Both the position numbers and the translations under genes were made by a program. Shown one piece after another: positions 1 through 10,768 of a stretch of 10,768 bases of DNA. How positions within the stretch are numbered: position 1 is the first letter of the stretch; every line of letters begins with the position of its first letter. The notes under the pieces were generated by a model. That model was given only the letters and a program-made list of their open reading frames with translations. It searched no databases and was not told the origin of the DNA. The stretch is from a virus (taxonomy: Duplodnaviria; Heunggongvirae; Uroviricota; Caudoviricetes), in the IMG/VR virus record IMGVR_UViG_2671180279_000005; one strand, given 5' to 3'.

Positions 1-276
1 GTGGCTTCTGTTTCTATCAGCTGTCCCTCCTGTTCAGCTACTGACGGGGTGGTGCGTAACGGCAAAAGCACTGCCGGACATCAGCGCTATCTCTGCTCTC
101 ACTGCCGTAAAACATGGCAACTACAGTTCACTTACACCGCCTCTCAGCCCGGTACGCACCAGAAAATCATTGATATGGCCATGAATGGCGTTGGATGCCG
201 GGCAACCGCCCGCATTATGGGCGTTGGCCTCAACACGATTTTCCGCCATTTAAAAAACTCAGGCCGCAGTCGGTAA
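1..276 (+). CDS. insA: IS1 InsA (transposition inhibitor / N-terminal part of transposase), GTG start
   Basis: 91-aa [43 protein letters not shown]... with a C4 zinc-finger-like CxxC...CxxC and HTH region characteristic of IS1 InsA. Confidence 0.9.
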
Positions 277-698
277 CCTCGCGCATACAGCCGGGCAGTG
301 ACGTCATCGTCTGCGCGGAAATGGACGAACAGTGGGGATACGTCGGTGCTAAATCGCGCCAGCGCTGGCTGTTTTACGCGTATGACAGGATACGGAGGAC
401 AGTTGTGGCGCACGTTTTCGGTGAACGCACTCTGGCCACACTGGAGCGTCTTCTGAGCCTGCTGTCGGCCTTTGACGTGGTGATATGGATGACGGATGGC
501 TGGCCGCTGTATGAATCCCGCCTGAAGGGAAAGCTGCACGTAATCAGCAAGCGTTACACTCAGCGCATTGAGCGACATAATCTGAATCTGAGACAACATC
601 TGGCAAGGCTGGGACGGAAGTCACTGTCGTTCTCAAAATCGGTGGAGCTGCATGACAAAGTCATCGGGCATTATCTGAACATAAAACACTATCAGTAA
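195..698 (+). CDS. insB: IS1 InsB reading frame; expressed as InsAB' transposase by programmed -1 frameshift at the A6C motif (252-258)
   Basis: 167-aa frame overlapping the insA 3' end in the -1 frame; slippery AAAAAAC at 252-258; sequence ...[21 protein letters not shown]... typical of IS1 InsB. The M at 195 is an ORF-track start, not necessarily an independent initiation site. Confidence 0.85.
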
Positions 699-713
699 GT
701 TGGAGTCATTACC

Positions 714-820
714 GCCGATTCGTAGAACTGTTTCTGCTGAGTGTCGCTGAGACAGGAAAAGAGCGACGTTACGATGATTTTATTAATTGCATTATCAAGT
801 TCTTTTTCATCAAAAGTCAT
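714..820 (-). pseudogene. 5' fragment of an ORF truncated by the IS1 insertion (36 native codons, then the frame runs into the IS1 terminal IR and stops at about 692)
   Basis: ATG at 820-818 (minus) preceded by AAGGAAAA Shine-Dalgarno 5-6 nt upstream; open frame MTFDEKELDNAINKIIVTSLFSCLSDTQQKQFYESA reads directly into the IS1 end at 713. Product not recognised. Confidence 0.3.
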
Positions 821-1120
821 TTGATTTTCCTTTTATGTATACGGGCTTAAAAGGATACCACCGAGCCTGAAGTGGTGAAAAGACAGGCACATAACAGCTA
901 AGTATTTTCAACCAAAGAGAATCCTTAGCGTTGTGGTGAATGCGGCTCAGCGCACGCGGGTTAAGGTTGAGGCTGACAGTCGACCTTCTGTGGATACCCA
1001 CCCGTCTGGTGTGCAACCTTCGCCAGGCACCGGGAGGCACCCGGCACCACAACTTTATGCTGTGTGTAGTCCTGGCGGTACCAGTTTGTACCATTGCTTC
1101 CGGCTGATACCGTCCTTTTT

Positions 1121-1209
1121 ACAAAACAGAGAAGAGCATCACCGGACGACGGGCTCATAACCCAATCCATCCGGGCGGCAGTCACCGCAGGTGTTCTTCT
1201 CTGTTTTGT
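1121..1209. repeat. 15-bp perfect inverted repeat (1121-1135 ACAAAACAGAGAAGA / 1195-1209 TCTTCTCTGTTTTGT) flanking a 59-nt GC-rich spacer; potential long stem-loop, function unknown
   Basis: Directly read from sequence; inner extension CACC (1140-1143) / GGTG (1190-1193) after one mismatch. Lies 49 bp upstream of the yfdP-like start codon in an otherwise non-coding GC-rich stretch (about 930-1210). Confidence 0.75.
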
Positions 1210-1257
1210 GGAGAAACTAACCGACCTTGCAGGGTCGATATGATGAGGAGCAGCAAA

Positions 1258-1620
1258 ATGGCTAGCGAACGCAGTACTGATGTGCAGGCATTTATCGGGG
1301 AGCTGGACGGCGGCGTATTTGAAACCAAAATCGGCGCAGTTCTCAGTGAAGTCGCTTCCGGTGTGATGAACACGAAAACCAAAGGTAAGGTCTCGCTCAA
1401 CCTGGAAATCGAACCGTTTGATGAGAACCGAGTGAAAATCAAACACAAACTCTCATATGTTCGCCCGACTAACCGCGGGAAAATTTCCGAAGAAGACACC
1501 ACCGAAACGCCGATGTATGTCAATCGCGGTGGTCGCCTGACTATTCTGCAGGAAGACCAGGGACAGTTACTGACTCTTGCCGGTGAACCTGACGGAAAAC
1601 TCCGCGCAGCAGGTCGTTAA
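1258..1620 (+). CDS. yfdP: Prophage protein of unknown function, YfdP-like (120 aa)
   Basis: ATG at 1258 with GAGGAG Shine-Dalgarno 8 nt upstream (the ORF-track start at 1240 lacks an RBS); 120 aa; first gene of a P-Q-R-S-T series whose sizes (120/274/178/120/101 aa) and order match the E. coli CPS-53 (KpLE1) yfdP-yfdT genes as I recall them. Symbol assigned from that operon context, not from sequence-level recognition. Confidence 0.6.
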   Translation: MASERSTDVQAFIGELDGGVFETKIGAVLSEVASGVMNTKTKGKVSLNLEIEPFDENRVKIKHKLSYVRPTNRGKISEEDTTETPMYVNRGGRLTILQEDQGQLLTLAGEPDGKLRAAGR

Positions 1621-1685
1621 TATCGTTTTTAATTAACTGATTATTTATCTCATCACTGAATATCTTTATATAGTGAGGACTTATT

Positions 1686-2510
1686 ATGTCTCAGAACTTA
1701 GACGCAACCGCAATTAATCAAATCCATGCCCTTATTTCTGCTCAGGGTGTTAATGAAATTATCAGTAAGATTGGTGCCGATGCTGTGGCATTGCCTGAGA
1801 ATTTCCGCATTCATGATCTGGAAAAATTTAATTTAAATCGCTTCCGTTTCCGTGGTGCGCTTTCCACTGCCAGCATCGATGACTTTACCCGTTATTCTAA
1901 AGATCTTGCAGATGAAGGCACCCGCTGCTTTATCGATGCTGATAATATGCGTGCCGTCAGTGTGCTTAACCTGGGTACTATTGATGAACCAGGTCACGCA
2001 GATAACACCGCCACACTCAAACTGAAAAAGACAGCACCGTTCTCTGCTCTGTTGTCTGTTAACGGCGAGCGTAACTCCCAGAAGTCACTGGCAGAATGGA
2101 TTGAAGACTGGGCCGACTATCTTGTGGGCTTTGATGCTAATGGTGACGCTATTCAGGCAACAAAAGCGGCTGCGGCTGTCCGTAAAATCACGATTGAAGC
2201 AAACCAGACCGCTGATTTTGAAGATAATGACTTCAGCGGCAAACGCTCCCTGATGGAGTCTGTCGAAGCGAAGACCAAAGACATTATGCCAGTGGCATTT
2301 GAATTTAAATGCGTTCCGTTTGAAGGTCTGAAAGAACGTCCGTTTAAATTACGCCTCAGTATTATCACTGGCGATCGTCCTGTACTGGTTCTACGCATTA
2401 TTCAGCTGGAGGCGGTGCAGGAAGAAATGGCTAACGAATTTCGTGATCTGCTTGTTGAGAAATTCAAGGACAGCAAAGTAGAAACCTTTATTGGTACTTT
2501 CACCGCCTGA
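1686..2510 (+). CDS. yfdQ: Prophage protein YfdQ-like (DUF2303 family), 274 aa
   Basis: ATG at 1686 with GAGGA Shine-Dalgarno 7 nt upstream; 274-aa ORF; size and operon position match yfdQ. Followed by an intrinsic terminator. Confidence 0.65.
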
Positions 2511-2524
2511 TTTCATTACTGCAA

Positions 2525-2546
2525 ATGCCCCTGCGGGGGCATTTAT
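2525..2546 (+). terminator. Rho-independent terminator after the yfdQ-like gene: 7-bp GC-rich stem ATGCCCC / GGGGCAT, 4-nt loop TGCG, then TTTAT
   Basis: aaATGCCCCtgcgGGGGCATtta at 2523-2545, 15 nt after the stop codon at 2508-2510. Confidence 0.6.
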
Positions 2547-2637
2547 GGAAACGTAATTTACTCAATAATCGCCGGATGGTGAGGGATTCTTTTTACCAGA
2601 ATTCAGCGCGGTGCAGCGCATATACGTGGAGAACAAA

Positions 2638-3174
2638 ATGTCATTTATTAAAACTTTTTCCGGGAAGCATTTTTATTATGACAGGATAAATAAAGACGAC
2701 ATCGATATTAACGATATCGCGGTTTCCCTTTCAAATATCTGTCGCTTTGCCGGTCATCTTTCGCACTTCTACAGCGTCGCCCAACATGCGGTTCTTTGCA
2801 GCCAGCTGGTGCCGCAGGAATTTGCTTTTGAAGCGTTAATGCATGATGCAACAGAAGCGTATTGCCAGGACATTCCCGCACCACTGAAACGCCTTCTTCC
2901 TGACTATAAACAAATGGAAGAAAAAATAGACGCCGTAATCCGTGAGAAATACGGGTTACCCCCAGTTATGAGTACGCCCGTGAAATATGCCGATCTCATC
3001 ATGCTGGCAACCGAACGCCGCGATCTCGGGCTTGATGATGGCTCTTTCTGGCCTGTACTGGAAGGTATCCCGGCAACAGAGATGTTCAACGTGATTCCAC
3101 TGGCTCCGGGCCATGCCTACGGGATGTTTATGGAACGCTTTAACGAGTTATCGGAGTTACGCAAATGCGCATGA
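2638..3174 (+). CDS. yfdR: HD-domain phosphohydrolase (5'-deoxynucleotidase-like), YfdR-like, 178 aa
   Basis: ATG at 2638 preceded by GGAGAA Shine-Dalgarno (preferred over the ORF-track ATG at 2611); HD-domain signature residues in ...SVAQHAVLC... and ...LMHDATEAY...; 178 aa, the size of YfdR. Confidence 0.7.
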   Translation: MSFIKTFSGKHFYYDRINKDDIDINDIAVSLSNICRFAGHLSHFYSVAQHAVLCSQLVPQEFAFEALMHDATEAYCQDIPAPLKRLLPDYKQMEEKIDAVIREKYGLPPVMSTPVKYADLIMLATERRDLGLDDGSFWPVLEGIPATEMFNVIPLAPGHAYGMFMERFNELSELRKCA

Positions 3175-3527
3175 ATGTTTTCGAAATGGAAGGGTTTCTT
3201 CGTGGGAGATGTGTACCGCGAGATCTGAAAGTAAATGAAACAGATGCTGAATACCTAGTGCGTAAATTCGATGCGCTTGAAGCTAAATGTGCAGCACAGG
3301 AAAACAAAGTAATACCAGTGTCAACTGAACTGCCACCAGCAAATGAAAGTGTTTTGTTATTCGATGCTAACGGAGAAGGCTGGCTAATTGGCTGGCGTTC
3401 TCTCTGGTACACCTGGGGACAAAAAGAAACCGGAGAATGGCAGTGGACATTTCAGGTCGGGGACCTTGAAAACGTCAATATCACTCTCTGGGCAGTAATG
3501 CCAAAAGCACCGGAGGCTGGAGCATAA
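3165..3527 (+). CDS. yfdS: Prophage protein YfdS-like (DUF551-like), 120 aa
   Basis: Start ATG at 3165 (or in-frame ATG 3171 forming an ATGA overlap with the yfdR stop at 3172-3174); 120 aa; translationally coupled within the operon. Confidence 0.6.
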   Translation: MRMNVFEMEGFLRGRCVPRDLKVNETDAEYLVRKFDALEAKCAAQENKVIPVSTELPPANESVLLFDANGEGWLIGWRSLWYTWGQKETGEWQWTFQVGDLENVNITLWAVMPKAPEAGA

Positions 3528-3832
3528 TGACCACTTTTACCGACAAAGAACTGATTAAAGAAATTAAAGAGCGTATCAGCAGCCTTGACGTGCGAGACGA
3601 TATTGAGCGCCGTGCTTATGAAATCGCACTCCTATCTCTGGAAGTAGAACCAGATGAACGCGAAGCTTATGAATTATTCATGGAAAAGCGTTTCGGTGAC
3701 TTAGTAGATCGTCGGAGAGCAAAAAACGGCGATAACGAATACATGGCATGGGATATGACTCTCGGTTGGATCGTCTGGCAGCAACGAGCTGGTATCCATT
3801 TTTCAACAATGTCACAGCAAGAGGTGAAATAA
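3527..3832 (+). CDS. yfdT: Prophage protein YfdT-like, 101 aa
   Basis: TAATG overlap with the upstream stop (3525-3527); GGAGG Shine-Dalgarno upstream; 101 aa. Confidence 0.6.
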   Translation: MTTFTDKELIKEIKERISSLDVRDDIERRAYEIALLSLEVEPDEREAYELFMEKRFGDLVDRRRAKNGDNEYMAWDMTLGWIVWQQRAGIHFSTMSQQEVK

Positions 3833-4182
3833 TGGAGCCATACAGCCTCACACTCGATGAGGCCTGTCATTTTCTCAAGATATCCAGACCGACTGCCATT
3901 AACTGGATACGCACAGGGCGTCTTCAGGCAACACGCAAAGATCCCACTAAGAATAAATCTCCTTACCTCACAACACGACAAGCCTGCATTGCGGCTCTTC
4001 AGTCTCCGCTGCATACTGTCCAGGTGAGCGCGGGTGATGGCATAACAGAGGAAAGAAAATGTCACTCTTCCGCAGAGGTGAAATATGGTACGCCAGTTTC
4101 ACATTGCCGAACGGTAAAAGATTTAAACAGTCTCTTGGAACAAAGGACAAAAGGCAGGCGACAGAACTCCATGACAAGCTAA
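3832..4182 (+). CDS. xis: Excisionase / recombination directionality factor-like HTH protein (Xis); the 3' end as drawn overlaps int by 124 nt in another frame, so the true C-terminus is uncertain
   Basis: ATG at 3832 in a TAATG overlap with the yfdT stop, GAGGTG Shine-Dalgarno; N-terminal segment [28 protein letters not shown] resembles the winged-HTH of AlpA/Xis-type excisionases; located immediately upstream of the integrase gene as in lambdoid phages. Confidence 0.55.
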
Positions 4183-5222
4183 AGGCTGAAGCATGGCGGG
4201 TCAGCAAACTTGGTGAAATACCTGATATAACGTTCGAGGAAGCGTGTGTCAGGTGGCTTGAAGAGAAAGCACATAAAAAATCACTGGACGATGATAAAAG
4301 CCGGATCGGATTCTGGCTTCAACATTTCGCAGGAATGCAACTAAGAGACATTACTGAATCAAAAATTTATTCAGCAATGCAGAAAATGACGAACCGGCGT
4401 CATGAGGAAAACTGGAAACTCAGGGCAGAAGCATGCAGAAAAAAAGGGAAACCTGTTCCAGAATACACGCCAAAACCAGCGTCCGTTGCAACGAAGGCTA
4501 CGCATCTTTCATTTATAAAGGCCCTACTAAGAGCCGCAGAGCGTGAATGGAAAATGCTGGATAAGGCACCAATTATTAAAGTGCCCCAACCAAAGAATAA
4601 ACGGATCCGCTGGCTGGAGCCCCATGAAGCACAAAGGCTGATTGATGAATGTCCGGAGCCATTAAAGTCTGTTGTTGAATTTGCACTGGCAACAGGCCTA
4701 AGACGCTCGAACATCATCAACCTTGAATGGCAACAAATAGATATGCAGCGCCGGGTGGCATGGATAAACCCGGAAGAGAGTAAATCAAACCGCGCAATTG
4801 GCGTTGCGCTGAATGATACTGCATGTCGCGTATTGAAAAAACAAATCGGGAATCATCACCGTTGGGTATTTGTGTACAAGGAAAGCTGTACCAAACCAGA
4901 CGGAACGAAAGCGCCAACAGTCAGGAAGATGCGGTATGACGCAAACACAGCCTGGAAAGCGGCGCTGAGACGGGCTGGTATTGATGATTTCAGATTTCAC
5001 GACTTGAGACACACCTGGGCAAGTTGGCTGGTTCAAGCCGGAGTCCCGTTGTCAGTGTTACAGGAAATGGGAGGCTGGGAGTCTATCGAAATGGTTCGTC
5101 GATATGCTCACCTTGCACCTAATCACCTTACCGAACACGCACGGCAAATAGACTCGATCCTGAACCCATCGGTCCCAAATTTGTCCCAGTCAAAAAATAA
5201 GGAAGGTACTAATGATGTGTAA
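4059..5222 (+). CDS. int: Lambdoid-prophage tyrosine integrase (DLP12 IntD / phage 21-type), 387 aa
   Basis: N-terminus [28 protein letters not shown] typical of this integrase family; C-terminal catalytic region with [10 protein letters not shown] and MVRRYAHL (Tyr nucleophile); stop at 5220-5222, 15 bp from the tRNA-derived att core. Confidence 0.9.
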
Positions 5223-5236
5223 CTTATTGATTTAAA

Positions 5237-5282
5237 TGGTGCCGATAATAGGAGTCGAACCTACGACCTTCGCATTACGAAT
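5237..5282 (-). other. 46-nt copy of the 3' end of tRNA-Thr(CGU) (thrW-type), anticodon loop through CCA; interpreted as a phage/island attachment-site core (att junction), not a functional tRNA gene
   Basis: Minus-strand sequence ATTCGTAATGCGAAGGTCGTAGGTTCGACTCCTATTATCGGCACCA matches the anticodon-loop-to-CCA portion of E. coli tRNA-Thr (thrW) as I recall it; the upstream minus-strand sequence (GGAAAGTGATATTTTTGG) does not continue into the D-arm or acceptor stem. Confidence 0.75.
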
Positions 5283-5377
5283 CCAAAAATATCACTTTCC
5301 ACAATGTTTCATCGACTTCCATTTCATCACATAAAAACAATATATATCAATAAATTAAGACAAAAACACCTTTCACG

Positions 5378-5446: not shown

Positions 5447-6769
5447 ATGGCAACAGTGATAACTCAGGATCGACAGATAGCAAGCCTTGTTCCCCCTGTA
5501 GGAAAAAACCGGATTGTCGTCAGCGTCAAATCAAAAGCAGGTGCGGGGTTGTATATCGAATCCCGATCAGGGAGCCAAACAAAGAGTTGGCTCTACCGTC
5601 CCTACCTCAACGGCAAGCAGATAAAAATTACCCTGGGAGCTTATCCTGCAATGACGCTGGCCCAGGCTCGTGAAGCACATGCTGAAGCCATTGAGTTAGT
5701 GAAGCAGGGAATTGACCCCAGATACGTTCGTAAAACTGAAAAATCGAATAATGAGCAGATGCCCATATTTTCTGAATTGTGGGAAAACTGGTTGTCATTC
5801 AGAGAAACCAGCAAGCCAATAGGGGCTCGTACACTGGCTGATTATAAGGGAACGTATCGTCGCCATCTTGAGCAGGGGCTAGGCTCCGTGAGAGTGTGCG
5901 ATTTATCGCGTTCATATTTGTTTGCACACCTGAGCAAAGTCCGACAATCCAGCGCTGAAGGTGTGCGCAAAGGGCTTATCATCCTGAATATGACACTTGA
6001 CCATGCCACACTTCAGGGATTAATCGAGCTCAACCCTGCCCGTCTGTTAAAACCGGCGATGTTTGGTGCTTCCATGGCTAAACCGCGTGAGCGCTGGTTA
6101 TCGCAGGATGAGCTTCAACGGCTCTGGAAAACACTAGAAGAAGCTACTGCTGGTGGCGGTTCAGTTAGCACCGGTGGAAAAGGTATCGCTTCCAGTGTCG
6201 TTTTATCCCATGCGATAGCTAACACACTGAAGCTGATTATTCTGACCGGCGTTCGCCGCTCTGAAGCGGTTAAAATGCGCTGGGATCAAATCAACGGCGA
6301 TCGCTGGACAATACCGGAAACAAAGAATGGTAAAAGTCATGTAGTAACACTGCATCCGCTGGCACTGTCTATCCTGAAGAAACAGCGAATTATCTCCGAA
6401 GGCGCATTTGTCTTTGAGTCCACCAGCAACCAGGGATTCCCTATAACCGGAGACGCTGTCACACGAGCACTGGAGCGCCTGCGTAAAAAATATCTGGCAG
6501 AGCTGGAGCCATTTTCTCCCCATGATTTACGCCGCAGTGTCGCTACTGGTTGCGCTGAATATCTGGATGCCCCGGAGCGCCTGATTGAGCGATTGTTAAA
6601 CCACATTCCTAAAGACCGCCTGATCAGAACCTATCAGGTCGGGCAGCAGGCGGAAAAATTGCGTAGTTTGTTTTTGAGCTGGGGGGATTTTGTGGAGCGG
6701 TATGTAGCGCAGTCTGCCAGCCATGAGGTGACGGATAATGTTGTTCAGGTTAAGTTTGGCGGCAGATAA
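5447..6769 (+). CDS. P4-type tyrosine integrase (DUF4102-like N-terminal arm-binding domain plus phage-integrase catalytic domain), 440 aa
   Basis: N-terminal pattern ...GAGLYIESRSGSQTKSWLYRPYLNGKQIKITLGAYPAMTLAQAREAHAEAIELVKQGIDP typical of P4/CP4-type integrases; C-terminal HDLRRS...RLIRTYQ region consistent with the catalytic R-H-R-Y tetrad. Confidence 0.85.
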   Translation: MATVITQDRQIASLVPPVGKNRIVVSVKSKAGAGLYIESRSGSQTKSWLYRPYLNGKQIKITLGAYPAMTLAQAREAHAEAIELVKQGIDPRYVRKTEKSNNEQMPIFSELWENWLSFRETSKPIGARTLADYKGTYRRHLEQGLGSVRVCDLSRSYLFAHLSKVRQSSAEGVRKGLIILNMTLDHATLQGLIELNPARLLKPAMFGASMAKPRERWLSQDELQRLWKTLEEATAGGGSVSTGGKGIASSVVLSHAIANTLKLIILTGVRRSEAVKMRWDQINGDRWTIPETKNGKSHVVTLHPLALSILKKQRIISEGAFVFESTSNQGFPITGDAVTRALERLRKKYLAELEPFSPHDLRRSVATGCAEYLDAPERLIERLLNHIPKDRLIRTYQVGQQAEKLRSLFLSWGDFVERYVAQSASHEVTDNVVQVKFGGR

Positions 6770-6886
6770 CGTAATACTCGCTCTGATGGCGTTCAATGAA
6801 CAAAAAACTCTCATATCAGTCGGTCAACTCGATACTAATAGTGGGTATCAGCGATAGATTTCATGGTAAGAGTAAATGGGTAAATT

Positions 6887-6912
6887 AAAAGCAGTTACAG
6901 TGTACTGCTTTT
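6887..6912. terminator. Bidirectional intrinsic terminator between convergent genes: 9-bp stem AAAAGCAGT / ACTGCTTTT, 8-nt loop, A-run on one side and T-run on the other
   Basis: aaattAAAAGCAGTtacagtgtACTGCTTTTaattcatttt at 6882-6922; sits directly after the stop (6923-6921) of the minus-strand operon and about 120 bp after the plus-strand integrase stop. Confidence 0.6.
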
Positions 6913-6920
6913 AATTCATT

Positions 6921-7739
6921 TTACGGTTTACTTTGCTCGCTAATTTCCTGCAACTTCCAAAGTAAAGCCAACACGAGCCGAGGAGCACCTTTATATCCCT
7001 CGTAACCTTCATGTTCTGAGACAGAGCTCATCGCATCAAGTAGCCTGTAAGCTGGGCCATTTACATCAAATAACTGGTCCCCAATCCTTTTAACATCAAT
7101 AGTTACCAACCTACCACCGTCTTGCATCACCTGTGAAATTTCATGGAGAGCATCCGTCCAGTATGGTTGTCTCCCCCACCACTCGCCACGAGATTGACCA
7201 GCCTTCGTTATGGGAAGAGGAAAATGGGGATTACTTTGCGAAATGACGGATTTATTACCAATCCAATTGAAATTATCCTGACCTTCAACCCAGACTGGCA
7301 AAGTTGTTAAATTTTCCGGGAGCCCTTCCATCTCCTCCCAGCAAACGGTTGGGACCATGTCACCTTGCTCAAGAAAACCAATGAGTTCAGATAACCAACC
7401 AGCATACCCCCAGTCACGTCCCTTGCCAGTAAGGGCAATATCCGGAAAACGGGTGATAAATTTCTCTGCCAGGGTGCGAGCATCATTACCGTCAGTATCT
7501 GTCCAACTGAAATAGTGACCCGCACCAGTGATAGCGACTAAGGAGTCGGAAAGCTTGTCGGTCGGAATCGCAATACCATTGTCGGCAAAATAATCTCGCG
7601 GGGCGATTGCGAATCTGAACCCCTGTGCATTGAAGTAAGACATACCCCGCAGTTGTTGGTAGCCAAGACGATGTAGCTCTGAAAGCATCCGCAGGCATCG
7701 TTGCGCTTTACGTACCCATTCAAATTTCGACTTCATCAT
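6921..7739 (-). CDS. Hypothetical protein, about 272 aa, Trp-rich, no recognisable domain; second gene of a helicase operon
   Basis: Open frame on minus strand; preferred start ATG 7739-7737 (or 7736-7734) preceded by GCAGGAGAG Shine-Dalgarno and forming an ATGA overlap with the helicase stop codon TGA (7738-7736); the ORF-track start at 7763 would give 280 aa with a 28-nt overlap. No Walker A, HNH, Toprim or other catalytic signature detected by eye. Confidence 0.7.
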   Translation of the reverse strand: MMKSKFEWVRKAQRCLRMLSELHRLGYQQLRGMSYFNAQGFRFAIAPRDYFADNGIAIPTDKLSDSLVAITGAGHYFSWTDTDGNDARTLAEKFITRFPDIALTGKGRDWGYAGWLSELIGFLEQGDMVPTVCWEEMEGLPENLTTLPVWVEGQDNFNWIGNKSVISQSNPHFPLPITKAGQSRGEWWGRQPYWTDALHEISQVMQDGGRLVTIDVKRIGDQLFDVNGPAYRLLDAMSSVSEHEGYEGYKGAPRLVLALLWKLQEISEQSKP

Positions 7740-10700
7740 CTCTCCTGCATGATCGCTGTACATTGTTTTGCGGCATCGACTCTCCGCTCGTACTCCTCAA
7801 GTGTGATGTTCTCATAACAACAGTCAGCTTCGTCCCGGCGATAGCGATTGCAGCCATAGAAAACACCACCATCCTTATTTTTCCGCTTAAGCATTGTGCC
7901 AAGACCACAGCGTCGGCAGACAATTTCTATCTCCTGACATTCTGGGTTCGCGCATATTCTTTGCAAACCATTATGCATCACCATCGGAGAACTACATTGC
8001 TTGCAGGCACTAGCCATATAATCACAGGCAGGAGAGTGCGAGCAGACATAGAATTTTTTATCATAGCGACTCACTTTACCCGTTAAGCAGCCTGATTCAC
8101 AATCGGGGCAATGCCACTGACCGATTTCAAGAGAATCACTTTTAGTGATGAGCTGTTGACCCATTCTGGCAATCTCCTCAACAAACGCTGAGGTGTTTTG
8201 GCTATCAAAGATCATAAATACATAGTGCCGGGCGCGGGTAACGGCGACGTAAAACAAACGGCGCTCTTCGGCAAACAAATATGGCTCTTGCTCCGGGAGA
8301 AGAAGATCTATCAGTTCGTCATTTTCCTTTGCCGATGGAAAACACCCTTTCTCAAGACCAAGGAGTAGCACGTAATTCGCTTCCAGGCCTTTACTGGCAT
8401 GCGCGGTCTGGTATTGAATATCCAGCAGAGGAAATTCAGCCATTAGCGCCTGAACATCCATATCCTTAAGCTCTCGCATATTTTCCAGACGATAGCGGCC
8501 AATAAGCATTACTGGTGCCCGCCTGGTACTGTTGAGTCTCACTTCCCGACGATGACAACGAGTAAGCGCTCTCTTGATTTGCAGACGATAAGCTTCAGCC
8601 TTTCTTTGGTTGCGATCGGATAGGTCAATACCGTGCATTTGTTCCTGAATATCAAGCAGCTGTACTGCAGCATGCTCCACCTGTGAGAGCGTAGTAATCT
8701 CTTTCTTCAATTGTGCTGGATTACGGGTGACAAAGGCAGAGCTGAGTTCATGTATGCGATTATTAAAACGATAACTCTTGTCAAGAGGCAACATTTTCGC
8801 TGGCGAAAATTGATGATCAAAGCGGGTAAAAAATCTTAGATCAGACCCGTTAAAACGATAAATGGCTTGCCAATCATCTCCTACCGCAAATAACCGCATA
8901 TTATCCCGGGTTGCCAGTAATGCTTTTAACAACTTGCCTCGTCCACCGGAAAGATCCTGGAATTCATCAACCAGTACGTAGTCATATCGGTGATGAAATT
9001 GTCCCTCCTGAAGCGCTGTTGTTGCTTCCGCGATCATATCGCTGAAGTCCATCTCGCGCTGCTCTTTAAGGTGAGCTTCATAGGCATCGTATACTGGTTT
9101 GAATAATTCGATAAATGCCTGAGTACGCCCCATGTCTATTCGTTGAGGGGATGCCAGGAGGTCTGAAAAAGAAAATTGCCCTTCTTTGAAAAGCCCAAGA
9201 AAGCGGAGCATCAGATCGATAAATCCTTGCCACGGCGATGAACTGGAGTTTTTAAGTTCATCCAGAAGCGTATCAGTATCACGCAAATGCTGTGGTTCAC
9301 TTACCCGATTAAGTATATCGAGTAAATTATTCTCAAGTATTCCTTCGGCTAGCTGATAGCTATATAACTCTTCCAGTCGGGTATTATGTTGTTGATGCAA
9401 CTTCCGCTTCCAGGCGACTCCTTCAAGGTATGCAGCCTGATTAACAAAAGGGGCCGTTCTCATTTGCCGATCCACGCCCAGGTATTCAATATAGGTCTTG
9501 CTTCTCGGCAGGTAAAAATCAGGTTTATACTGGCGGCGCTCAATCGTTGCTGTATTTACCTCATAATTCGCTTCGTATTCGAATGGAACAGAATACAAAT
9601 ATAAATAGTTGGCAACTCTCAACTCCCCCACACTCTTTACCCACTGCCCCGTCAGCGTAATCAGGCGACAACTTTGCAGAAACTCATGATATTCTTCAAT
9701 AGCATTGAAGTCATATTCACAACGTCCTGGCGTGCTATAACAAACAAAATATTTAACTAGTTGAGTTTTATAATCATCGTTGACACTTATTTCTGACTCT
9801 AATTTCGCCTCAATAAAATGGCGCAGTTCATTATTTTGCTCTGCAAAACGTGTAAGAGAACGCTTGACGCCTACACTTTCAGCAACGACACGGTTTCCAA
9901 AAGCATGAAAGGTCGTTGCTTTTAGCTTGCCGCCACTTTCTGGCAATCGTTCTGTGATACGCTCAGCCATTTCCCGTGCTGCTTTATTCCCGAAAGCCAG
10001 CATTAATATATTTTCAGGCTGAGCTAAACCTGCTTGCAATAAATACCCTGCTTTACCAATTAATGTCGACGTTTTTCCGGTACCCGCACCAGCAACGACC
10101 AAAGTATGATCTTCATTGGTAACACAGGCTTTACGCTGAGGGGCACTAAGCGGTTGAGATTCGATCTGTTCAAAGAAAGTCTGATAAGCTGACAATAACT
10201 GTGGGATAACTTTCTCGTTGAAGTGGCTCCTGGCAGATTCTGAAACATCGTCCATGGATAACTTCAGCGCCAGTTGTGCTATGGGGTTATTACCTTCATG
10301 AGCAATAAAATCTGCATCAATCGCAAGATCCAGCAATCGTTTCTTTACCTGCATTAACTGTGACAAAGATCGCCATTCCCACGAAGAAAAATAGTGTCCC
10401 CCTTTTTGATAACGTTTTACTAGCTCCAGCAATTCCCTCCACTCATTGCTGTGCTGGAAAATATCTAAAGCTGTACATTGGATTTTTTTGATAAGCGTTT
10501 CCAGCTGTTGCAGATTGAAACCATTTAATTGATATATCTTACTCTCCAAACCAATAACAATCTCAGAGTACAACCATTTTTTATTTATTTTAACATTTTT
10601 AATATCACCGATGGGCAATTGCACACTCACCCCATGATGGATGAAAGTCAATTGGCCTGGAGACAATAATATTTTATTAGCACGTCGACGCCAAATACCC

Positions 10701-10768
10701 CACAGATCGTAAAGCGGATGCGTGCTGAGGTTATGTTCACATTGCAACTGTGGAGTTAATTTTTTCAT
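7736..10768 (-). CDS. Helicase IV (HelD)-like UvrD/Rep-family SF1 helicase, 1010 aa, with an internal PD-(D/E)xK / Vsr-DUF559-like nuclease-like insert and three C-terminal topoisomerase-type C4 zinc ribbons
   Basis: Walker A GAGTGKTS (aa 227-234, nt 10067-10090); motif II LVDEFQD (aa 599-605, nt 8954-8968); FAVGDDWQAIYRFNGSD, KSYRFN, TAHASKGLEANYVLLLG and YVAVTRAR motifs collinear with E. coli helicase IV as recalled; insert GELRVANYLYLYSVPFEYE...YKPDFYLPRSKTYIEYLGVD (aa 378-432); Zn ribbons CPDC...CSHSPAC, CKQC...CANPEC, CRRC...GCNRY...C (aa 887-985, nt 7814-8110). Start codon is the last 3 nt of the window, so an upstream in-frame start cannot be excluded. Confidence 0.85.
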   Translation of the reverse strand: MKKLTPQLQCEHNLSTHPLYDLWGIWRRRANKILLSPGQLTFIHHGVSVQLPIGDIKNVKINKKWLYSEIVIGLESKIYQLNGFNLQQLETLIKKIQCTALDIFQHSNEWRELLELVKRYQKGGHYFSSWEWRSLSQLMQVKKRLLDLAIDADFIAHEGNNPIAQLALKLSMDDVSESARSHFNEKVIPQLLSAYQTFFEQIESQPLSAPQRKACVTNEDHTLVVAGAGTGKTSTLIGKAGYLLQAGLAQPENILMLAFGNKAAREMAERITERLPESGGKLKATTFHAFGNRVVAESVGVKRSLTRFAEQNNELRHFIEAKLESEISVNDDYKTQLVKYFVCYSTPGRCEYDFNAIEEYHEFLQSCRLITLTGQWVKSVGELRVANYLYLYSVPFEYEANYEVNTATIERRQYKPDFYLPRSKTYIEYLGVDRQMRTAPFVNQAAYLEGVAWKRKLHQQHNTRLEELYSYQLAEGILENNLLDILNRVSEPQHLRDTDTLLDELKNSSSSPWQGFIDLMLRFLGLFKEGQFSFSDLLASPQRIDMGRTQAFIELFKPVYDAYEAHLKEQREMDFSDMIAEATTALQEGQFHHRYDYVLVDEFQDLSGGRGKLLKALLATRDNMRLFAVGDDWQAIYRFNGSDLRFFTRFDHQFSPAKMLPLDKSYRFNNRIHELSSAFVTRNPAQLKKEITTLSQVEHAAVQLLDIQEQMHGIDLSDRNQRKAEAYRLQIKRALTRCHRREVRLNSTRRAPVMLIGRYRLENMRELKDMDVQALMAEFPLLDIQYQTAHASKGLEANYVLLLGLEKGCFPSAKENDELIDLLLPEQEPYLFAEERRLFYVAVTRARHYVFMIFDSQNTSAFVEEIARMGQQLITKSDSLEIGQWHCPDCESGCLTGKVSRYDKKFYVCSHSPACDYMASACKQCSSPMVMHNGLQRICANPECQEIEIVCRRCGLGTMLKRKNKDGGVFYGCNRYRRDEADCCYENITLEEYERRVDAAKQCTAIMQER

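Follow-up and report, generated by a model that had tools for sequence, protein, structure and literature searches.

The 10,768-nucleotide IMG/VR record IMGVR_UViG_2671180279_000005, referred to here over its whole length as the window, ends in two genes on the minus strand: one for a 1010-amino-acid (aa) predicted helicase-nuclease with a helicase IV (HelD)-like core of superfamily 1A (SF1A; 7736..10768) and, downstream of it, one for a two-domain protein of 272 (or 271) aa that we call the orphan (6921..7739). The full orphan open reading frame (ORF; 6921-7763, minus strand) has 280 aa, and the 272 aa are counted from the ATG at 7739. Within ...ATGCAGGAGAGATGATGAAG... the helicase stop codon TGA (7736-7738) and this ATG (7737-7739) form an ATGA overlap. 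A second ATG at 7734-7736, giving a 271-aa product, may be the true start because most homologues begin with MKSK. The Shine-Dalgarno sequence of the orphan, AGGAGA (7741..7746, minus strand), lies within the last helicase codons (MQER*). The orphan converges with the 440-aa integrase of the island (5447..6769, plus strand) from a distance of 151 bp, and between the two lies an AT-rich hairpin with a 15-bp stem (6881..6918), a candidate bidirectional terminator, for which RNA folding gave -16.5 kcal/mol (z = -5.75) with none of 200 shuffles equally stable. The layout described in the first-pass annotation of this DNA, an ORF pair with an ATGA overlap and a Shine-Dalgarno sequence inside the helicase 3′ end, convergent with an integrase and closed by a terminator, is therefore all present in the sequence. 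Relative to orthologues, the ratio of nonsynonymous to synonymous substitution rates (dN/dS) is 0.05-0.07 for the helicase and 0.03-0.06 for the orphan; both are real genes under purifying selection.

The 4-kb region that holds these genes is E. coli chromosome. It matched 43 of 5426 complete E. coli genomes (0.8%), in every case on the chromosome, and none of the plasmids in PLSDB. In the RefSeq annotation of E. coli E24377A, the locus forms the integrase-side end of the thrW island, where the genes run from thrW through a few others of the island to zorABCD (type I Zorya), then hsdM-hsdS-DUF4268-hsdR, the helicase, the orphan, the integrase and finally paoD. A type I restriction-modification (RM) operon and Zorya I lie directly beyond the window edge, and the locus is within a bona fide defence island. 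The helicase promoter is not visible in the window because the window stops at the helicase start codon; in E24377A the spacer between hsdR and the helicase is 176 bp.

The first-pass annotation proposed that the two genes form an undescribed anti-phage or anti-mobile-element system. We instead favor, with a probability of about 60%, the view that two modules abut here, the helicase being a stand-alone helicase-nuclease that probably acts on invading DNA and the orphan an unrelated gene of the island backbone. The genes are regarded as adjacent modules and not as a system because their distributions are separate, they decay independently, an exact breakpoint falls between them in a helicase-free island, and their association in E. 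coli reflects a single clone.

Independent distributions of the helicase and the orphan

The close helicase clade (at least 45% identity) is much larger than the set of orphan homologues, and helicases with no orphan beside them are found in four genera, Aeromonas, Pseudomonas, Vibrio and Pseudoalteromonas. Orphans of at least 76% identity lie behind the helicase and the same RM operon in Lelliottia, Leclercia and eight metagenome contigs, the exception being locus L118, while relatives of 70% identity or less are never beside the helicase. Orphan relatives without a helicase were found in a Propionivibrio integrative and conjugative element (ICE) between genes for a VapE-like primase, HU and TrwC; beside an integrase fragment, a transposase and Zorya; after an AEP primase-helicase; and at the edge of an AlpA/RepO/DnaB island. 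Another stands alone in Mucilaginibacter, and a homologue of the orphan N-terminal domain (N-domain) follows HU and WGR genes on a plasmid of Neokomagataea.

The two genes also decay separately. The helicase is intact (1010 codons) next to an orphan that is frameshifted, interrupted or truncated in Pectobacterium (L095-98) and in metagenome loci L119 and L121, and L111 is the converse case, in which the helicase has decayed and the orphan has not. A toxin-antitoxin arrangement, with the orphan as antidote to the helicase-nuclease, was rejected since intact helicases persist beside decayed orphans. All 36 orphan-bearing E. coli genomes have the orphan beside the helicase, and these pairs carry no independent information because they belong to one clone with at least 99% identity. 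Three E. coli sequences (NZ_CP183123.1, NZ_CP183117.1 and NZ_CP183138.1) have a helicase split by the IS4-like element ISVsa5, the remaining region being 100% identical.

The junction between the modules is resolved by comparison of L118 with the Lelliottia locus L008. They share 2755 bp at 97.5% nucleotide identity, consisting of the orphan, a 102-aa ORF and the integrase. The homology starts 8 nucleotides upstream of the orphan ATG, and beyond this breakpoint BREX with an embedded PARIS replaces the RM operon and the helicase. The orphan and the integrase are thus one module, kept together when the cargo is swapped. The BREX of L118 (11-7973) is type 1, ordered PglX-AriA-AriB-PglZ-BrxL, with PARIS-like AriA/AriB between pglX and pglZ. 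The string CAGGAGAGATGATGAA is invariant in the helicase-bearing loci and in this helicase-free BREX island; at L118 7985-8006 the string CAGGAGAGATGATG stands after brxL with a 28-nucleotide spacer, and its counterpart in the window (7736-7750) encodes the last four helicase codons, MQER*. Because the same string occurs in the helicase-free L118, the Shine-Dalgarno sequence and the start codon are the orphan's own, and the ATGA overlap results from the helicase ORF running on into this ribosome-binding site. The translational coupling suggested earlier for this pair thus retains its overlap but loses its dedicated ribosome-binding site, which is identical where no helicase is present.

Conservation of the gene neighborhood across genomes, whose absence the first-pass annotation had itself named as the outcome that would speak against a pair, was not found: co-occurrence is confined to one Enterobacteriaceae island lineage. 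With each gene found alone elsewhere, three orphan decays and a cargo swap at the orphan start, we abandon the proposal that helicase and orphan are one system.

Architecture and relatives of the helicase

The assignment of the helicase gene draws on the ORF and its translation, Pfam, NCBIfam, PDB sequences, a structural model and dN/dS. Pfam returned UvrD-helicase (PF00580, 1.2e-46), AAA_19, UvrD_C (PF13361, 7.7e-16) and a weak Zn_ribbon_Top1, and the PDB sequence matches were UvrD, PcrA and Rep (~1e-32). With both UvrD domains, a Walker A motif and VDEFQD (aa 600-605), the protein belongs to the UvrD/Rep/PcrA type of SF1A. The Walker A motif GAGTGKT (aa 227-233, with K232; 10070..10090, minus strand) falls in invariant columns of an alignment of 16 helicase sequences of 35-88% identity (alignment A1). 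The top NCBIfam match was DNA helicase IV (NF008276), at 420.4 bits in three stretches relative to a cut-off of 543, and on this score the protein is a homologue, not an equivalog, of HelD. It resembles HelD (PF12462, PF00580 and PF13361) in that this is its best-scoring family over the whole protein, in its SF1A UvrD-type motor and in a comparable N-terminal region flagged in homologues. Unlike HelD, it falls below the family cut-off, is about 330 aa longer owing to a nuclease insertion and four zinc ribbons, is borne on an island and is rare in E. coli.

The N-terminal region (aa 1-205; 10154..10768, minus strand) is predicted from the secondary structure of the AlphaFold2 (AF2) model to contain a beta-rich domain at aa 12-84 and, after it, a helical bundle. 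PF12462 is precomputed on several full-length homologues, and a Pfam search with this region of the window helicase gave no match. At the C-terminus are four Cys4 zinc ribbons of the topoisomerase I type (aa 887-984; 7817..8110, minus strand), with Cys pairs 887/890, 909/915, 922/925, 939/944, 951/954 and 973/984 invariant in alignment A1; the isolated C-terminus reaches the Pfam cut-off for Zn_ribbon_Top1 (9.6e-8), and the ribbons appear as beta-hairpin repeats in the AF2 model. That model (mean predicted local distance difference test, pLDDT, 74) consists of the N-terminal beta domain, the helical bundle, a motor into which an alpha/beta nuclease is inserted, and the four ribbons. Profile searches and structure prediction are consistent with one another, and they bear out the earlier description of a HelD-like helicase with a nuclease motif.

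The insertion, of roughly 150-250 aa, lies within the first motor domain between two Pfam UvrD-helicase stretches and contains a putative PD-(D/E)xK nuclease domain (aa ~335-490; 9299..9766, minus strand) proposed from profiles, alignment and model. Its strongly conserved block, VKSxxExxxANxL...YEYE...Y.PDFYLP....YIE(Y/H)(L/F)G...WKR..H in the 16-sequence alignment, includes the invariant residues E382, D417 and E428, and the order of elements in the AF2 model, alpha-beta-beta-beta-alpha-beta, fits the PD-(D/E)xK core. As targets for mutation, the first-pass annotation had correctly named K232 of Walker A, but its nuclease aspartate, D416, is D417 in the alignment. A profile of the insertion (A3) matched T7 endonuclease I in the PDB (3cae, E = 5.7e-4; also 2pfj and 1m0d) across the catalytic motifs. 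The helix Glu and the PDF and hhhE motifs of this junction-resolving PD-(D/E)xK enzyme align with E382, D417 and E428, although only ~55 residues align, the insertion has L or F where ExK has its catalytic Lys, and T7 endonuclease I is a free dimeric resolvase, whereas the insertion is embedded in a helicase. Among PADLOC models the insertion matched PDC-S69 (4.8e-10), HEAT_CxxC_PD-DEXK (1.9e-8) and PDC-S68 (1.7e-4), whose nuclease domains are homologous to it while the remainder of each protein is unrelated, the shared part being only the nuclease domain (~80-115 aa). PHROG gave weak endonuclease matches. The same insertion is present in distant HelD-like helicases of many bacterial and archaeal phyla.

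No system in PADLOC v2.0, a library of named and candidate systems (including Hachiman, DISARM, Nhi-like, Hhe, PD-T4/T7/Lambda, HEC and PDC), matched the helicase or the orphan over its full length, in agreement with the first-pass statement that the gene pair fits no named system. Gabija resembles this locus in that GajB models match the SF1 core of the helicase (up to 169 bits) and in its defence-island setting. It differs in that these matches are partial, falling in three stretches, no gene for a GajA-like ATPase-Toprim is nearby, the neighbors are hsdR and an orphan without a PADLOC match, and the nuclease is built into the helicase; membership in Gabija was rejected on the partial matches and the missing GajA neighbor. 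A more suggestive likeness is to Nhi, Hna and DruE (Druantia III), in which a nuclease joined to a DNA motor reportedly breaks down DNA of replication type or forked form (bioRxiv 10.64898/2026.05.13.724313), a mechanism that we infer may also apply to the window helicase. These effectors belong to other helicase lineages and place the nuclease differently, the window protein having its T7-endonuclease-I-like insertion inside a HelD-like SF1A motor, and no membership of the helicase among Nhi/Hna/DruE-type effectors was detected at the sequence level in PADLOC. Its architecture is new among helicase-nuclease effectors. Neither the helicase nor the orphan was found described in literature on UvrD/HelD defence genes, DUF4268 or 'Swiss Army Knife' ADP-ribose (ADPr) proteins, and the cluster names of homologues were uninformative. 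It is plausible from these comparisons that the helicase is a candidate stand-alone defence gene without a PADLOC name.

The neighborhoods of the close clade are consistent with such a role. Type I RM and Zorya I are near the helicase in E. coli, Lelliottia, Leclercia and Pectobacterium. In Vibrio splendidus it and brxR-BREX are divergently oriented on a mobile genetic element (MGE), in Aeromonas it adjoins a TmtA gene and a resolvase, and in Pseudoalteromonas it is near ArdC and a transposase, in each case without the orphan. At the Aeromonas locus (L099, 11494-16023) TmtA is full-length (PADLOC PDLC03968, 1421 bits) and convergent with the helicase-nuclease, after which comes the resolvase. 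In Pseudoalteromonas (L106, 2352-10988; also L107 and L108) a 47%-identical helicase-nuclease closes a tight six-gene operon, the preceding products being of 316, 216, 361 and 389 aa and then a 595-aa HSP70/MreB-like protein. None of these partners matched PADLOC and four had no Pfam match; the operon could be an undescribed multi-gene system. Farther afield, distant relatives (28-41% identity) are present on 84 plasmids, one of them adjoining a multiubiquitin/ThiF cluster, and tblastn of RM, Zorya, BREX, PARIS and TmtA proteins against the distant helicase loci found almost nothing. A pattern-based census of helicase neighborhoods used generic SF1 motifs, so that most of the at least 80 loci listed are ordinary HelD or distant helicases and the census is not quantitative for the close clade. 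A defence reading of the helicase, which is plausible, rests on the context of the gammaproteobacterial clade and on shared domains, not on a named family.

If the helicase does act on invading DNA, the zinc ribbons and the N-terminal region would engage single-stranded or branched DNA, the motor would then translocate 3′-5′, driven by ATP, and the inserted nuclease would cleave invading phage or plasmid DNA that is branched or being tracked, making the protein a single-protein effector. In Enterobacteriaceae its gene is the last of the cargo, after hsdM-hsdS-DUF4268-hsdR, with which it may be co-transcribed, and the orphan belongs to the integrase end of the island, bringing its own ribosome-binding site and start codon.

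The orphan family and the integrase end of the island

The orphan had been described as a partner without a recognizable domain, and in keeping with this it matched nothing in Pfam, NCBIfam, PADLOC, PHROGs or PDB sequences; its separate domains likewise had no match in PADLOC. Alignments A2 and A5 and the model nevertheless delimit two domains. The N-domain (aa 1-177; 7209..7739, minus strand; pLDDT about 85-95) contains the motifs ELH..G.Q..R, YF.W.D..ARxLA.KF..RFP and G.DW.YAGW..E..G..E spread over about 130-170 aa. The C-terminal domain (aa 178-272; 6924..7208, minus strand) is variable, absent in many homologues and modeled with low confidence (pLDDT 40-70). Homologues of 178-200 aa terminate at an FPLPP motif, and the C-terminal domain alone forms ORFs of about 80 aa on Acetobacter plasmids. 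At L115 (8004-8561) the orphan ends after 185 codons, just beyond the N-domain, and it is recorded in the database as a 185-aa protein too (P0018). Because of this 185-codon form and the many natural homologues of 178-200 aa, the N-domain alone is suggested to be the functional core.

A search with the full orphan gave 41 homologue clusters, and an N-domain profile run against 1.84 billion representatives gave 826, of which 528 were below 1e-10 and many were multi-domain. By sequence, the orphan is a two-domain protein of a large, uncharacterized, MGE-associated family. No relatives were found by tblastn in 50,697 phage records or in IMG/VR, and a phage origin was rejected for lack of relatives in phage records and viral contigs. 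The idea of a DNA-mimic anti-restriction protein was rejected as well (pI 5.5; 34 acidic and 28 basic residues). In plasmid pPNAP05 of Polaromonas (L102, 6890-7807) a 305-aa N-domain homologue is encoded within a type I RM operon (hsdM-hsdS-PDDEXK-LprI-homologue-hsdR), its gene overlapping the start of hsdR, which is 56% identical to hsdR of the thrW island. At L123 another N-domain homologue is 2.6 kb from an RM operon of the same lineage (hsdR 55-56% identical) and adjoins a DndB/DpdB-like gene.

The integrase that shares a module with the orphan is a tyrosine integrase of the P4 type, as first annotated, with Arm-DNA-bind_3 (PF13356, 9e-17) and Phage_integrase (PF00589, 6.7e-18) as its arm and catalytic domains and a thrW-derived duplicate of the attachment (att) site 130 bp upstream. 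ARAGORN called an 80-nucleotide tRNA-Thr(cgt) at 5237-5316 (minus strand), where Rfam gave no tRNA match and where identity to the E24377A thrW extends only from the anticodon loop to CCA. A genuine tRNA is ruled out by the 3′-half-only identity and the lack of an Rfam match; the feature is a pseudo-tRNA that duplicates the 3′ half of thrW, forms the island's att site on the integrase side and is analogous to ptwF of K-12. Window positions 1-5222 are the end of a lambdoid prophage with yfdP/Q/R/T-like genes and its own 387-aa integrase (4059-5222), inserted in tandem at the secondary att site of the thrW island in the window's strain type. Over at least 80% of its length, this junction of prophage and island was found in 6 of 5426 genomes.

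RefSeq annotates none of the P4 core genes (alpha primase-helicase, psu, delta, sid, cos) anywhere between thrW and the integrase in E24377A, no profile search having been aimed at them, and on this ground we do not consider the island a P4 satellite. The cargo slot of a P4 satellite, as which the locus was first described, is therefore an analogy rather than a membership, although both the P4-type integrase and the defence island are genuine. Hotspots for defence cargo beside the integrases of P4 and P2 satellites were reportedly described by Rousset et al. in 2022, and we take the thrW/CP4-6 site of E. coli to be a comparable integrase-side hotspot. Like those hotspots, the site has a P4-type integrase beside a slot with exchanged cargo (RM, helicase and Zorya versus BREX and PARIS); unlike them, the E24377A island is without annotated P4 genes, and the conserved gene that flanks the slot is the 272-aa orphan. 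Farther into the island, beyond the window, the DUF4268 gene (L001, 27310-28497 in E24377A) keeps its position between hsdS and hsdR in four genera. DUF4268 is present in the anti-phage proteins MdgA and MdgB and has been tied to type IV restriction (10.1101/2025.02.28.640651).

Competing explanations and implications

Several observations weigh against two unrelated modules of which the helicase is directed at invaders. The helicase is in no named defence family, its full-protein PADLOC matches covering the shared SF1 core only (RTasHel 176 bits, GajB at most 169 bits), and its nuclease activity is not assured because the canonical ExK Lys is absent. The Pseudomonas graminis helicase stands alone, without the orphan, in a non-island context with no obvious defence neighbors, and a Pfam scan of neighbors placed distant nuclease-bearing HelD-like helicases (30-40% identity) amid housekeeping genes; because of these two findings the family could be one of repair or recombination helicases that are sometimes carried by islands. 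As for the orphan, the N-domain homologues of Polaromonas and L123 are in or near type I RM operons of this island's own RM lineage, and all orphans of at least 76% identity except that of L118 are behind the helicase with a conserved 4-nucleotide overlap, so that a lineage-specific functional link in Enterobacteriaceae is conceivable.

The best surviving alternative, though an unlikely one in our estimate, is that the helicase is not immune in function but is a HelD-type repair, recombination or RNA-polymerase-recycling helicase-nuclease carried for the DNA processing or maintenance of the mobile elements themselves. Its top family match is helicase IV, and in addition to the housekeeping settings of distant relatives and the non-island copy of P. 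graminis, one relative, on a plasmid of Vibrio, lies among genes for type IV secretion and pili (transfer). Conversely, a canonical helD is already present in E. coli, the gene is patchy in that species (0.8% of genomes), it is found recurrently between or beside RM, Zorya, BREX and TmtA, and its nuclease domain is common to PADLOC candidate defence proteins, all of which speak against this alternative.

The orphan may serve the island backbone in counter-defence or immunity, as a factor that acts on ADP-ribose or nucleotide conflict molecules or binds a toxin, and thereby aids establishment of the element or protects the host from its cargo; we consider this doubtful. The orphan accompanies the integrase module as well as backbones of ICE, plasmid and primase type, and its N-domain is fused to ADP-ribosylglycohydrolase and DSP-PTPase (P0282, P0250) and to NUDIX (P0192), with one fusion each to Exo_endo_phos and DUF6508. 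These fusions may be taken as a lead toward ADP-ribose or nucleotide chemistry and no more; partners were identified in only a handful of 60 scanned multi-domain relatives. Also at odds with counter-defence are the repeated decay of the gene, the lack of relatives in phage records or viral contigs, a composition that is not markedly acidic, and searches of the orphan that identified no catalytic motif and no fold match.

Somewhat less probable still is that the functional unit is the entire six-gene block hsdM-hsdS-DUF4268-hsdR-helicase-orphan, in which the helicase-nuclease, the orphan or both would modulate or back up restriction. The order is kept in E. coli, Lelliottia, Leclercia, Pectobacterium and at least eight metagenome loci, the gap between hsdR and the helicase is 106-176 bp among the block-bearing loci, a scan of this spacer found no consensus promoter, a related helicase has a DUF4268 gene directly beside it in a metagenome-assembled genome of Bacteroidia, and N-domain homologues are within or 2.6 kb from same-lineage RM operons in Polaromonas and L123. 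Yet the helicase occurs without RM in Aeromonas, Pseudomonas, Vibrio and Pseudoalteromonas, the orphan without RM in L118, L010, L012 and L002, and conservation among closely related islands may be mere co-inheritance. Very improbable, finally, is an obligate, translationally coupled two-gene system with the orphan as sensor, regulator or effector partner, for which the overlap and internal Shine-Dalgarno sequence kept in E. coli, Lelliottia, Leclercia and six metagenome loci, the adjoining helicase in 36/36 orphan-bearing E. coli genomes and purifying selection on both genes are outweighed by the clonality of the E. coli copies, the separate occurrence of both genes, three independent losses of the orphan beside an intact helicase and the BREX/PARIS cargo of L118.

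The view of two abutting modules carries a general caution for islands of this kind: as the breakpoint analysis shows, a 4-nucleotide overlap and a shared Shine-Dalgarno sequence do not prove partnership, and cargo swapping can join any last cargo gene to the first gene of the backbone. With the two-gene system set aside, what is left is one candidate by association among the many that defence islands contain. In a more speculative extension, to which we give little credence as a whole, the orphan would be the founding member of a domain family, undescribed and large with its 800 or more clusters at 50% identity, that marks the integrase-proximal edge of defence-cargo slots and functions in ADP-ribose- or nucleotide-centered conflict, as counter-defence or self-protection of the mobile element, and the HelD-like helicase with its internal T7-endonuclease-I-like nuclease would separately be a new single-gene anti-phage or anti-plasmid effector. 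If the helicase-nuclease does restrict phages or plasmids, an effector of the HelD lineage would join the known helicase-nuclease defences, and a conserved, unnamed gene in the much-used Zorya island of E24377A would be accounted for. The domain family of the orphan, which is large, outside the curated libraries that were searched and occasionally fused to ADP-ribose-processing domains, offers a tractable lead to new functions of mobile genetic elements.

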